Shown: positions 8,601-14,600 of the stretch, one piece after another
Layout: the number at the start of each line of letters is the position of its first letter
Numbering within the stretch: position 1 is the stretch's first letter
From: Octopus sinensis
Taxonomy: Eukaryota
DNA length: 64,000 bases
Assembly: GCF_006345805.1 (NCBI RefSeq)
Contig: NC_043002.1
Coordinates: 68,076,001 to 68,140,000, forward strand
Direction: 5' to 3'
Position numbers and translations under genes: made by a program
Notes under the pieces: generated by a model
What the model was told of the DNA's origin: nothing
What the model saw: the letters and a program-made list of their open reading frames with translations, nothing else
Database searches by the model: none

Positions 8601-11600
8601 TCTTTCTATTGTAGCTACAGATTTAAATGCAGGGATTGAAATTGAGTTGCGGAAGTGTTTGGTACAGCGTTTATCGAAAGGTGTTGACTGCATTGGTAGC
8701 GGAAATGTTGTTAGCTTAACTTCTAGGTGAATATTGAAATCCTCTTTTTTAAATCCATGAAGATTTAGATTTTGAAATATTTTTATGGAATTTTCTCTCT
8801 TTGGATTATGGATATGCTCCATAAATTTTCTTTTCTTTACCTTTATCCAAACTTTAGTTATAATTATTTCTTTTGATGAGGCATAATACCATCTCTTACC
8901 AAAAGAATCCCACGGTGAAATGAAACCTGGTACTATGCAGTTGCCAAGCGATCTTCTTAACCATGCAACCATACCTGCTTTCTTCAAATCTTTCTGATAC
9001 TTGTAAATGTCAATACATTCTTCATTATTATAACTAGCAAAAAGACTGCCTTCCTGGTCGTTTTCTGCTGGTCACTAAATAATATTTACATTTCTGATTC
9101 CCAACTTGTATCATTTTTCTGATATGTTACCACTAATTCTCTTCTGTATCTTTTATTTGTCTAATAGTATTTACTCAGTCAGTAGATAAATTTAGAATTG
9201 TAACAAGGGATATTAAAAGTTATAATTACCACTTTAGAAAGCATATTTTATAGTGTGCATGTAGGAAGGTTTCAAATATAGGTATTTTACAATGAAATGC
9301 AATTTCACCAGTTTGTAATGTTTCGAGTTAATTCAATGAGGTTAAATTGTAGTGACTGGCAGCAAGGTTCATTGAATGAGTGATGAAAGAGAATCAGATC
9401 AGGAAGCAAATGTATAAAGAAATAAACATACTTTATTAAGGAGAGGACACCCTCTTGTATGAGTGGCAGTAATTGGTATTCTTTTCTACTCTAGGCATGA
9501 GGCCTGAAATTTTGGGGGAGGGGGCCAGTCAATTAGATCGGCCCCAGTACGCAACTGGTACTTAATTTATCGACCCTGAAAAGATGAAAGGCAAAGTCGA
9601 CCTCGGCGGAATTTGAACTCACAACATAAAGACAGACAAAATACTGTTAAGCATTTTGCCCGGCGTGCTAATGTTTCTGCCAGCTCGCCACCTTGCAGGA
9701 GTAATTGATATTACAGTATGCATGTGAATGTATGAACAAATAATAATGCGTGTAAAATGAATAAGTGATTTCAGGTGTAGAGATGGCTGGAGGCATTTGA
9801 CAAACTTACTATGGCATGGTCCTTAGTGGTTAGTATGTTGCCTAGATTAAATGAGTTGTAAGATGTGTGGTGTACAAAGTAAATGTCAGCATGTCGTTAC
9901 GTGTGCTTATAATCACTGAACAGTTTGACAACGTCATATCAGCATGTTGATGTCTCAACAGCAGCTCTCTCTGACACTTGAAAAGACCATGTTGCCACAT
10001 GTATCCTTCTGCAGACAGTAGTAAATGGATGAAATGGGCAAAGGATGACTGTGCTATGCTGCAACAACAAAACTGCTAACATGTCTCACTACAGAATAAT
10101 ACTAAGCACTCAAACACAGTAAGCACTCAAGCATACTAAGCACTCAATTTATGAAGAAATCAGGTATTATGGAGGGCAGCCTCTTTATTTCCACTAGTAT
10201 AAAGAGAAATATTAGAAATCTTACCTCATAATGTAAGATGACTATGCTGTAGTGAATAGAAATTACTTTTATGTTTGAATTGCTTAGTTGAAATCTTCAA
10301 TAATAAAAGATGATTGAAAACCAATTTTGATAAAAAAAATATATATTACAATTGGAATTTGTAAGAATTTTCTAGATAATATAGACTTTAATAATTACTT
10401 TCCTTTAGTAAAAGTTGTATACTCCAAGCTAATTAATAAGCAGCTTTCTTTATCACATAGATGTACACATATTAACTCTAGCACTTTGCTCAGCTCCACA
10501 ATAATATTTCTCTCAGATTATGATTGAAACTTAAATTCAGTCAGTCATTGTACAAATTTCAGAATTCTATTTGGTTGACTAATTCATACTTTAAATTAAG
10601 GATCAGGTCTCCACTCTTAGACAAAGGACAGGACTCTACCTGTCCAGCTGAATATTGATCCATTTCACAGTAGAGTAGCTAACAGTTGTATTATTTAGCT
10701 CCACCTCAGCATTGATATGTAACATTCCATCCATGACTGCTCTCTCTCTTTCTTTATCAAGGACAACCTTAAAAATAACATTGTCTTCTTTTGACTTGCC
10801 TGCTATTTTTAACTGGTAGTATAAACCATTCTGTGATTTTATTTATTATTATACCTGATTCATTTTTGTTTCAATTTTATAAAAAAGAAAGAAATTCTTT
10901 TTCAGTGAAAATTCAGATTTTCCATCAGTCTGCTATTATTGTCTATGGAAATCTGATTCAAATCCTGCCTGCAAAAGTACACCGGTGCTACCCCCGTCAC
11001 CAAAATCTCGGACTACATCTACTGGAGATTATCTAGTGTGTTTCCTGTTTAGTCAAGAAGATTCACTTGAACAATATCCTTTACTATTAACTTGTGTTCA
11101 TCTCTTTCTATTATTTTTATTCTCTTTTTGTTTTTGCATTGAGTTAAGCACGAATTATTGGAGTTATTTTCCATTTTGTTTTCTCTTTTAATTACAGAGA
11201 CTAATGGTCCTTTTTGAACTTAGTGATTTAGCTTCTTGTTAAAGGACTGGATGCAGAATGGCTCTGTTCTACATAATGTGTACATGTGTGTTGGTTTGTT
11301 TGTGTCTCCTTATCTTGACATTATGCAATAGTTGTAAGCAAGCATCATCTCTATGGTAGAAGACACTTGCTTACAGTATCATGTAGAGGGAATGAACCTG
11401 GAACCACATATTTGCAAAACAAACTTCTTAATTATACAGCCATGTTTATGTACATACGCAATATCAGATACCATTTACAATCTGTTAATATTTGTTATTC
11501 GCTTTCTTGGTCATGTTTGCTTCGAAGGAATGGAAACAAAATTCAGAAGACTGTTCTTATTGGGGACAAGACAACTTTTCTTGTACTGGTGCCAGAATAA

Positions 11601-14600
11601 AATGTACCCAATACACTTAGTAAAGTAGTTGACAAACAAAGACAACATTGAGAGTAGTCTCTTTTTATCTGGCTGTTGATATGACAGCTTCTCTAGTGCT
11701 GTTACCACAATAATATGCATCCAGTACACTCTGTAAGTAATTGATAAACAAAGACATCATAGAGGGTGGACTAGCTGAGGACATAGCAATCTCTCTAGTG
11801 CTGGTGCCACATTAAAATACACCTAGTACAATCTGTAAAGTGGTTGGTGTTAGAAGGCTATCCAATTGTAGAAACCATAGCAAAAGTGAAGTATAGGAGT
11901 AAGATATGATCCTTTGATTTGTTTTAGAGGACAATCATCTGAATAAGAATGGATTTAGACTATGGAAATCTGTTCAATCTATGCCAGACTGGAAAGTGTC
12001 ACAGAACAATGATGATGATTACAACACCGTTAAAAGTATTGGAACACACAGGAATCTGTTCCTGATAAACTGAAGGCCTTCTTTTATTTATAGAATTTAA
12101 CTTAATCATCATCTTATATAATGAAAGAATTATAGAATCAGGTGTTGCACATCATCATCATCATTTAATGTCTGTTTTCCATGCTGGCATGAGTTGGACG
12201 GTTTCACTGAGGTCTGGAGAGCCAGCAGCTGCACGAGACTCCAATCTGGTCTGGCAATGTTTCTACAGCTGGATGCCCTTCCTAATGCCAACCACTCCAA
12301 GAGTGTAGCAGGAGCTTTTTACGTGCCACCGGCACATGAGCCAGTCAGGTGGGCCTGGCATCGATCACATTCGGATAGTACTTTTTACATGCCACTGGCA
12401 CGGGGGCTAGTCAGTGGGTACTGGCATCAGCCACGTTTGGCACATTTTATTATTCATCTCAGTTGTCTTGACTTAACGAACTGTTTGAAGATCCATAAAT
12501 ATTGGTATTTAACCCTTTAGCATTCAGATTACTGTCAAATGCAATGCTTTTTTATTCACATTGTTTTGAATTAATCATGTATTATTTCATAACTTCAAGA
12601 TTTCAATAATGTGATTGTATATTTTAAGAATGATATTGCAGGTAGGTGTGAGAGGCCAAATCTGGCCAATTTGAACATAAACCAGGTAGAATATTTCAGC
12701 TAGATATGACCGAATTTACTGCTAAAGGGTTAAACAGTTACTTTTTTTCTTTTGTCTGCAAAAGCAATAAATAAATAAATAAAATCAGAGAGTAATTGAT
12801 AAATTACAGAGATGTACTTGCATAGCAAGTGACCTGATCTGAGATTGTGTGCTGGAACAAAAACAATTGCAGCATGGAAGGTGTTTATAAGCCATTTAAG
12901 AAACATACAAAAACCATTAGATTCACTTCAACATTTGAATTTAGTTTGTCAAAATATTTTCGTTGCTTTGAGACCGCGACCTGTTCACTGACAAAATTCC
13001 ATGCTCACGGTCTCAAAGCAATGAAAATATTTTGGCAAATTAAATTTAAATGTTGAAGTGAATCTAACGGTTTTTGTGTTCCTTAAATGTCTTATAAACA
13101 CCTTCGACGCTGCAATTGATAAATTAATCACCCATTTTTACAGATTTCTATGCAACCATCTACATCTTTTGATTCTCCTTAACACCTGCCTACCTTTCGT
13201 GTTGATCTTGATGATTATAGTGGAGGTGTTCTACAATACCTTGATGCCGAGGTAATATAGTCACTCATATTTTATGATCTTTGAAACTAAACCAACATAA
13301 ATGTGTATGATTAATTTAAATGTTTTGTCTTCAGGTTATTTCTTTTGTTTGTTTTGTTTGTGTTTTTTTTTTGCATCTTGTAACTTAATCAGTTTCTTAC
13401 ACTCCATATTAGTGTGACTTTTGTAGTTTTTGTTTTATATATATCAGAATGTATTTATTTGATTTTTGTTTGTATTGCTAACTAAGAGAAATGGCTTATT
13501 ATGACAGAATAGAAAGTAATTTGCTTGTCTAATTTAGTGTGAAACCTTGTATTGTTTACATCTATAAACACACACAGACACACATAATAAATATATATAT
13601 ATACTTTATTAAAAAGCAGCAAAAATATTACAAAAACTGTTACTCAGAGTTTCATGTTCCTGTTCGTCGGACAGTTTTGTTTAGAATGGAGCAAGATAAA
13701 GTTATATGCAGAAATACAATTAGTTTGATAGATACACATTTGAAAATGGTTTTATTTCATTGGTCCTTTCAACTAATGGTCTTTACAATGACCAGTTGCA
13801 TGCAATAACAAATTGCGGTATAAAATCATATTGTTAATAAAAATCAAAGAAAACCTTAAATCAAAACTAGCTTATAAAGAAGGACAGAGTAAAATAATTT
13901 GCTGTAAAATATTAATAAATTAATTCAAAATTTTAATTTATTAATTGATTAATATTTTACAACTAATTATTTACTCTGGGTATTCAGGCTCTGTCCTTCT
14001 TTATAAGCTATTTTTTATTTAAGGTTTCCTTTGATTTTTATAATAATATGATTTAATACCGCAATTGGTTATTGCATGCAACCGGTTATTGAAAGGACCA
14101 ATGAAACAAAACCATTTTCAATTATGTATCTATCAAACTAATTGTATATTTTTGTTCCATTCTAAACAAATTGTCTGATGAACAGGAACGTGAAACTCTG
14201 AGTAACAGTTTTTGTGATATTTTTGTTGCTTTTTAATAAAGCATATTACTCTACCTCTGGTATTCGAGTACTATTTTTTCCACCTTGTTTCGCATTTATG
14301 TGCTTACTCTGGTATATATAATATGTATATATATATATAGTGTGTTTGTGTATGTTTGGATTGTTGATATTTAGATTTAGTTTTTGTTGTCAAAACTTGA
14401 TTTTATATAGCATGATATAGATACTAATATCGATAGATAAATAGATATTTTGTATATTCATATAGGAGAACAATATCATTGTCTCAGTATCTATTGTCAG
14501 TTGGGTATACATAATTATTAACCAACATCAATCTTGTCGCCAGACTTTTAATTTCACTGTGAAGTTAATTTAATGTTAAAACGACCACCTGAATACATTT

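Follow-up and report, generated by a model that had tools for sequence, protein, structure and literature searches.

An AT-AC intron of U12 type in the octopus orthologue of Njmu-R1/C17orf75

U12-type introns, the substrates of the minor spliceosome (U11, U12, U4atac, U6atac and U5), begin with the 5' splice site consensus [A/G]TATCCTT, carry a branch box approximately 10-15 nt from the 3' splice site and have no strong polypyrimidine tract; gain of such introns is rare. U2-type ('type II') AT-AC introns lack both the TATCCTT and the TCCTTAAC box and have ATAAGT-like donors. The gene considered here, Njmu-R1/C17orf75, encodes a Golgi-trafficking protein, a subunit of the WDR11-FAM91A1 complex. 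Human C17orf75 (mouse 5730455P16Rik) is catalogued as a minor-intron gene in supplement files 1 and 8 of Olthof et al. 2019 (PMC6717393), and row 433 of file 1 gives GCT|ATATCCTTT as the 5' splice site and (G/T)CTTCCTTAAGA as the branch point sequence in both species. In human cells, expression of the gene is reported to depend on the minor spliceosome, and its minor intron responds to loss of SCNM1 and to knock-down of U6atac (PMC12750831; bioRxiv 10.1101/2021.12.09.471104); the first of these two reports describes the 5' splice sites and branch points of minor introns as highly conserved. Minor-intron conservation is also addressed by a survey that took in Octopus sinensis, O. bimaculoides and Sepia pharaonis and compared O. 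sinensis pairwise with human (Larue and Roy 2023, PMC10639083). Our literature search found no publication on C17orf75 together with AT-AC; the literature found on C17orf75 with a U12 or minor intron concerns human, and the available portion of the intronIC paper's supplement names neither C17orf75 nor Octopus.

The window, by which we mean the whole 64-kb stretch of Octopus sinensis DNA analysed here, contains an Njmu-R1/C17orf75 orthologue whose coding region spans positions 2528 to 44752 of the plus strand, as located by tblastn with the cephalopod homologues P0001 and P0002 and assembled into a spliced model (all features described below lie on the same strand). The gene comprises 12 coding exons and 11 introns, ten of them GT-AG and one AT-AC. 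When the AT-AC junction is included, the spliced 12-exon model encodes a protein of 431 amino acids that matches the public Njmu-R1 isoform X1 of Octopus sinensis/O. vulgaris (P0007) at every one of its 431 positions. P0007 belongs to Pfam family PF15053, with a score of 188.6 bits against a whole-protein cut-off of 27 bits; single exons in the genome score 15-23 bits, none above that cut-off, and are collinear. Exon 4 (168 nt; 10906-11073) aligns to PF15053 positions 86-131 and ends in GAACA in phase 2; contigs put its start at 10906, where the tblastn edge had been 10904. Exon 5 (58 nt; 13194-13251), found by tblastn and matched by a contig piece of exactly this extent in run X9, encodes (H)FRVDLDDYSGGVLQYLDAE and is followed by GTAATA. 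The 30-nt microexon 6 (19527-19556; ITKVTDKNSK) is optional, the model lacking it corresponding to isoform X2 (P0012). No Rfam family was found in the 64-kb window. Of its 160 stop-to-stop ORFs with at least 65 amino acids, the 47 in the flanks and intron 4 were compared with Pfam, and nothing exceeded the cut-off.

Intron 4 (11074-13193; 2120 nt) is the AT-AC intron. Its first nine bases, directly 3' of exon 4, form the donor ATATCCTTT (11074-11082), which agrees with the U12-type consensus. Near the other end lies the branch box TCCTTAAC (13176-13183), then eight bases, then the terminal AC (13192-13193); the presumed branch-point A, at 13182, precedes the final base of the intron by 11 nt, within the spacing characteristic of U12-type branch boxes. 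There is no AG from 13144 to 13219. Splicing in phase 2 creates the codon CA|C (His), so that the protein reads ...SLE-H-FRVDLDDYSGGVLQYLDAE (SLE-H-FRVDL...), the order also found in the cephalopod relatives P0001-P0003. The intron has been enlarged by high-copy repeats. The sequence-only reading had proposed this intron at these positions, with U12-type consensus at the donor and as branch box-N8-AC, followed by a 58-nt exon restoring the frame and, upon retention, a stop at 11191 preceded by a hydrophobic tail. All of this was borne out to the base: the spliced model is open for 431 codons, and a retained intron 4 stays in frame as far as a TAA at 11189-11191, adding a hydrophobic tail of 39 residues. 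The resulting 102-residue read-through ORF was compared with proteins of similar length; none of 11 candidates was significant, and the comparison brought up no ORF fragments from the genomes of relatives.

Counted over both strands of the 64 kb, the donor motif (RTATCCTTT) and the branch motif each occur once, against 2.37 and 0.95 expected, and their numbers are therefore not above chance. What does go beyond chance is position: the sole copy of each motif coincides precisely with an exon boundary that homology had set.

Compared with U12-type AT-AC introns as a class, intron 4 shares the consensus donor, a branch box approximately 11 nt from the 3' end, AT-AC termini and matching snRNA genes, and we found no departures. 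The genome carries genes for U11, U12, U4atac and U6atac (94.5, 126.6, 83.8 and 96.9 bits), each scoring above its own Rfam gathering score. The genome's own U12 contains GTAAGGA, complementary to TCCTTAC with one A left bulged; its own U11 begins (T)AAAAGGG, and the donor is complementary both to this 5' end and to AAAGGA in its U6atac. The predicted duplex of U11 with the donor has an energy of -6.5 kcal/mol, compared with -1.1 to -3.0 kcal/mol for all five GT donors tested from the same gene. Duplex energies did not single out intron 4 for U6atac, where one of five GT-AG controls was as strong or stronger, or for U12, where two of five were. In the mechanism we propose, U11 would pair with ATATCCTTT and U12 with TCCTTAAC, leaving the A at 13182 bulged as the branch point, and the minor (U11/U12-U4atac/U6atac) spliceosome would remove the intron.

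Terminal dinucleotides alone do not fix the class of an intron, and AT and AC termini are common to intron 4 and the U2-type AT-AC introns. Removal by the major spliceosome, as happens with 'type II' AT-AC introns, a rare kind known from sodium-channel genes, might also draw on the fairly pyrimidine-rich last 29 nt (22 pyrimidines by hand count, much of which is made up by the branch box itself). Yet intron 4 possesses both of the boxes that U2-type AT-AC introns are without, with TCCTTAAC 8 nt before the AC and a donor unlike ATAAGT. The intron of the human orthologue, moreover, is classed as minor and responds to SCNM1 loss and U6atac knock-down. We regard removal of intron 4 by the U2-type machinery as extremely improbable.

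Transcript-like contigs join exon 4 to exon 5 exactly at the predicted boundaries. The joint 11073 to 13194 (AT..AC, 2120 nt skipped, no ambiguous bases shared by both sides, 58 nt on one side) is unambiguous in runs X1, X5 and X9, i.e. in three of four runs from two studies, in contigs of 1882-1921 nt at a depth of 30-41; the junction anticipated from the sequence is thus present, with exon 4 intact to 11073. The same contigs connect exons 1-2-3-4 by GT..AG joints. The fourth run, X3, yielded no contig connecting Njmu-R1 exons. Pieces covering exon 4 stop exactly at 11073 in X1, X5, X9, X8 and X11. In X8, a 1283-nt contig ends exactly at 10904 and 11073, and by our arithmetic the bin depths of this run are compatible with cover of exactly 13194-13251; for X8 and X11, support for the junction consists of such piece ends and depth arithmetic. 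The AT-AC joint is absent among the joints listed (15 of 844) for X8, X11, X18 and X19.

These data are contigs rather than raw reads, and the run type 'RNA?' was guessed, no run being recorded as RNA, which leaves room for the idea that the joined form is DNA, derived from an allele with a deletion or from a processed copy, and not a splicing product. Four introns are skipped in the same contigs, however, and the runs contain only about 0.09-0.12 of the words of the window, approximately the share of the exons. In X18 and X19, DNA contigs extend through both edges of intron 4 without interruption. All nine matches to P0001 in the genome lie at the Njmu-R1 locus, exon by exon, with no second copy; therefore no retrocopy explains the joined form, and we assign the DNA explanation a vanishingly small chance. 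The transcript contigs show removal of this AT-AC intron of octopus Njmu-R1 exactly at 11073/13194, and we predict that it is a substrate of the minor spliceosome; this reading as a whole is very probable.

The sequence-only reading had also stated that gene finders limited to GT-AG introns mis-model such introns. This is borne out in part: P0008 (O. vulgaris, 396 residues) lacks the 35 residues corresponding to positions 137-171 of our model by substituting a GT..AG pair, and a model from the limpet Patella stops at the donor. It does not extend to the RefSeq-type octopus gene model, which is correct at intron 4; P0008 and the limpet model are probably mis-built there. P0008 raises the alternative that the functional intron is GT..AG 10996-13220, the AT-AC form being a minor or artefactual product. 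This pair of sites reproduces P0008 exactly and is the sole GT..AG pair to do so, and although its joint is absent among the 15 joints listed for the contigs, a further 98 joints lie beyond these. All three runs with mRNA-like contigs nevertheless have the joint 11073 to 13194, and their exon 4 pieces reach 11073, past the proposed donor. P0008 also scores 33 bits less against PF15053 (155.4 versus 188.6 bits for P0007), and it lacks the conserved VCFL...LE.FR..LD block found in Lingula, a bivalve, a sea cucumber and a PDB chain taken as human. That 10996-13220 is the functional intron is in our judgement highly improbable.

The AT-AC intron closely resembles the minor intron of human C17orf75. 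Both genes belong to the PF15053 family, and both introns combine a TCCTTAA-type branch box with the ATATCCTTT donor; the box is TTCCTTAAG in human C17orf75 and TCCTTAAC in octopus. The introns differ in length (253 nt in human, 2120 nt in octopus) and in the residue encoded by the split codon: vertebrates have Leu there, cephalopods His. Codon position and phase are alike, as judged from the fit of GCT| and from the read-through proteins of other mammals. PDB chain 24id_C ('Protein Njmu-R1', taken as human) reads ...GLE-L-FR... at the aligned site, and a donor preceded by GCT| fits a phase 2 Glu-Leu at this codon. Among 151 homologues scanned, five carry x-YP[FLS] immediately behind the conserved L[ED], including those of Patella caerulea (limpet), Rhincodon typus (shark), Rhinolophus ferrumequinum (bat) and Cricetulus griseus (hamster). 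The string x-Y-P-F/L/S is the translation of a phase 2 TATCCTT donor at the same codon; in Patella caerulea the footprint shows TATCCTT, and the first intron base may be A or G. Agreement with the human intron in codon and phase is thus indirect, through aligned proteins, and vertebrate orthology is based on proteins and one supplement row, not on aligned genomic loci.

Because the phase 2 TATCCTT footprint occurs at the same codon, the intron position is common to molluscs and vertebrates. The suggestion of the sequence-only reading that the intron is ancient and shared with vertebrates is supported to the extent that a comparison without other genomes allows, and intron 4 is likely, on this comparison of sequences, to be the same ancient minor-spliceosome intron as in the human gene; it would then descend from an intron of the bilaterian ancestor. 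Independent gain of a U12-type intron at the same site in molluscs and vertebrates would have to be convergent. In its favour, the comparison rests on proteins, with the introns of Lingula and sea cucumber and the loci of other phyla outside it, and the read-through signature is confined to five of 151 homologues. Against it, the codon, the phase and the TATCCTT donor are alike in octopus, limpet, shark, bat, hamster, human and mouse, and U12 introns are seldom gained. Convergence is very unlikely.

The intron is ordinary, since the public gene model already contains the AT-AC junction; it is a textbook U12-type intron in the orthologue of a known minor-intron gene. Our analysis confirms the octopus gene model, and the importance of this beyond annotation is small: it adds a well-documented example of a minor intron whose codon position has been retained between molluscs and mammals. 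By analogy with human cells, expression of octopus Njmu-R1 would depend on the minor spliceosome, and its output would be expected to respond to minor-spliceosome activity. Failure to remove intron 4 would give a truncated product or a target of nonsense-mediated decay, because of the TAA at 11189-11191. A bolder proposal is that the AT-AC subtype, the codon and the phase have been fixed since the protostome-deuterostome ancestor and that slow removal of the intron serves as a regulated throttle on Njmu-R1 in cephalopods; we consider this unlikely. The observation that speaks for a throttle comes from one run of a related species, where an unspliced contig extends over the donor at approximately half the depth of exon 4.

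The read-through signature may serve elsewhere, with x-YP[FL] in truncated protein models taken as the trace left by a TATCCTT donor.

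tblastn searches with two cephalopod homologues, P0001 and P0002, placed collinear exons of the Njmu-R1/C17orf75 gene from 2528 to about 44750. With exon edges refined, the model has 12 coding exons separated by 11 introns; intron 4 (11074-13193) is AT-AC and the other ten are GT-AG. The spliced model is an open frame of 431 residues, identical at 431/431 positions to the public protein P0007, which carries the name Njmu-R1 isoform X1 for Octopus sinensis and 'hypothetical predicted protein' for O. vulgaris; the AT-AC junction is therefore already in the public annotation. P0007 scores 188.6 bits against Pfam family PF15053 (cut-off 27), and the PDB chain 24id_C (Protein Njmu-R1) matches P0001 with E 2.6e-38.

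Exon 4 (10906-11073, plus strand, as are all features of the gene) ends in ...GAACA and is followed directly by the nine-base U12-type donor ATATCCTTT. The branch box TCCTTAAC occupies 13176-13183 and is separated by eight bases from the terminal AC (13192-13193), which places the presumed branch A, at 13182, 11 nt from the intron end. Exon 5 (13194-13251) is 58 nt long, with GTAATA directly downstream. Intron 4 is in phase 2 and splits a His codon, CA|C, so that the protein reads ...SQEDSLE-H-FRVDLDDYSGGVLQYLDAE. The same string, ...EDSLEHFR[VI]DLDDYSGGVLQYLDAE, is found in three cephalopod proteins retrieved with exon 4 alone as the query, two of which derive from contigs short enough for mRNA. 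Retention of the intron would continue the frame into a hydrophobic tail of 39 residues ending at a TAA at 11189-11191. The sequence-only reading had described this intron, its donor and N8-AC branch signals, the frame-restoring 58-nt exon and the stop at 11191; all of its coordinates were correct, the start of exon 4 being the sole refinement. The motif counts alone are not unusual: across both strands of the window there is a single RTATCCTTT (2.37 expected) and a single TCCTTAAC-N5-12-AC (0.95 expected). The informative point is that the sole copy of each motif lies exactly at an exon edge set independently by protein homology.

Four sequencing runs, whose RNA label is a guess, were examined as contigs across 2400-13500. 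Among the 15 joints listed, the predicted joint of 11073 to 13194 occurs in three runs, two of one study (X1, X5) and one of a second (X9), in a single contig of 1882-1921 nt each; it is described as 'skips 2120, AT..AC', with a short side of 58 letters and no letters fitting both sides. In these contigs, exons 1-2, 2-3 and 3-4 are linked via GT..AG introns. For the fourth run, the joints listed include no contig of X3 that links exons of this gene. The joined form is RNA rather than DNA, because the presumed-RNA runs contain only about one tenth of the words of the stretch, DNA contigs from two related organisms run unbroken across both edges of intron 4, and there is no retrocopy: P0001 has nine matches across the 2.7-Gb genome, all within this locus, exon by exon. 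In a run from organism B, a 1283-nt contig covers exon 4 exactly, and bins with depths of 4.38 and 1.67 (42/87 and 16/87 of the contig's depth of 9.06) correspond by arithmetic to cover of exactly 13194-13251, the joint itself not being among those listed. In run X11, from organism C, an unspliced contig (11044-12182, depth 28.5) spans the AT-AC donor, beside a unitig of exon 4 alone (depth 53.4) and roughly 30-fold cover of exon 5; contigs cannot rank these levels, and the unspliced contig may stem from retention of the intron, from pre-mRNA or from DNA in the run.

U12-type introns have consensus motifs for the donor and branch box, and both elements of intron 4 conform to them. Rfam models detect genes for U12 (126.6 bits), U11 (94.5), U6atac (96.9) and U4atac (83.8) in the genome, all above their gathering scores. 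The U12 contains GTAAGGA, complementary to TCCTT-A-C when one A is bulged; the U11 starts with TAAAAGGG and the U6atac contains AAAGGA, both complementary to TCCTTT in the donor. Pairing with U11 is stronger for the intron 4 donor (-6.5 kcal/mol) than for all five GT donors of the gene compared (-1.1 to -3.0 kcal/mol); the U6atac and U12 pairing energies do not discriminate intron 4 from the gene's GT-AG introns. From these signals, intron 4 is strongly predicted to use the minor spliceosome. Matches above the gathering score number 43 for U6atac (on many contigs, e.g. C19:20092690-20092805), three for U12, five for U11 and one for U4atac; the U6atac matches may represent a multi-copy family or retro-pseudogenes.

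In a HMMER alignment, 24id_C, which we take to be human Njmu-R1, has ...GLE-L-FRLELD... opposite the octopus-like ...SLE-H-FRIDLD.... Glu-Leu encoded as ..G CT|N is consistent with an exonic GCT in phase 2, a fit with a chance of roughly 6% (estimated, not computed). Such a GCT precedes the catalogued 5' splice site, GCT ATATCCTTT, which is alike in human and mouse, with branch point sequences GCTTCCTTAAGA and TCTTCCTTAAGA, respectively (Olthof et al. 2019, supplement file 1, row 433; PMC6717393). The human minor intron is 253 nt long (file 8; PMC6717393), compared with 2.1 kb for octopus intron 4, roughly half of which consists of very high-copy repeats. These lie at 12105-13148, with others at 5368-6851 and 9449-9819, and reach a summed contig depth of about 2 million in the DNA runs versus about 10 in unique flanks.

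A second test, independent of the fit between the human splice site and the PDB chain, looked for read-through into the donor. A gene model reading into a phase-2 donor translates N N|A/G TAT CCT T.. as x-Y-P-[FLS]. We scanned 151 proteins for this string, namely 148 from a homologue search (160 found among 1.84 billion representatives) plus P0004-P0006. It occurs anywhere in ten, and in five directly follows the conserved L-E/D of the intron site: P0113 (the limpet Patella caerulea), P0157 (whale shark), P0155 (bat), P0056 (Chinese hamster) and P0063. These five align in register with the window's own read-through, ...SLEQYPL; in the other five proteins the string falls at a different place and is unrelated. 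The limpet Leu at the site is compatible with A or G as the first intron base. The site-matched strings thus place a TATCCTT donor at the same codon and phase in cephalopod, gastropod and vertebrates. The intron is most likely as old as the bilaterian ancestor; the sequence-only reading had suggested that its position may be ancient and shared with vertebrate C17orf75.

One study regards human C17orf75 as a gene carrying a U12 intron, with transcript and protein both dropping when SCNM1 is defective (PMC12750831), and the gene is among the minor-intron genes with lowered protein upon U6atac knock-down (bioRxiv 10.1101/2021.12.09.471104). A literature search for C17orf75 with U12, minor intron or AT-AC returned reports on human only. 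A pan-eukaryotic minor-intron survey covers Octopus sinensis, O. bimaculoides and Sepia pharaonis, compares O. sinensis with human and notes a relative enrichment in molluscs (PMC10639083). The AT-AC intron is real and was correctly read, and it is an ordinary finding: public annotation already includes the junction, C17orf75 in human is catalogued among minor-intron genes, and the splice signals are of the textbook kind.

The expectation that GT-AG-only gene finders mis-model such introns was borne out in part. The principal public model for octopus is correct, and P0014, an older O. bimaculoides model that is split, crosses the junction correctly too. The only intron that yields P0008 (O. 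vulgaris, 396 aa) exactly is a GT..AG one at 10996-13220 in place of the AT-AC intron; it removes 35 residues, among them the conserved VCFL...LE.FR..LD block, and lowers the PF15053 score by 33 bits. P0008 is probably either a GT-AG gene-finder workaround or a rare isoform. The 155-aa limpet model P0113 (KAK6170716.1) ends in ...SSLDLYPF, shortly after entering the predicted U12 donor, where it appears to be cut off. The sole stop-to-stop ORF of at least 150 aa in the window (158 aa; 8598-9071, minus strand) is antisense to exon 3, has no Pfam match and is probably due to chance. Within the 18-kb gap after exon 5 lies an AG/GT-flanked microexon of 30 nt (19527-19556; ITKVTDKNSK), which is optional, as the model without it equals the public isoform X2 (P0012); its ten residues are a cephalopod-only insert relative to Lingula, bivalve, sea cucumber and the PDB chain.
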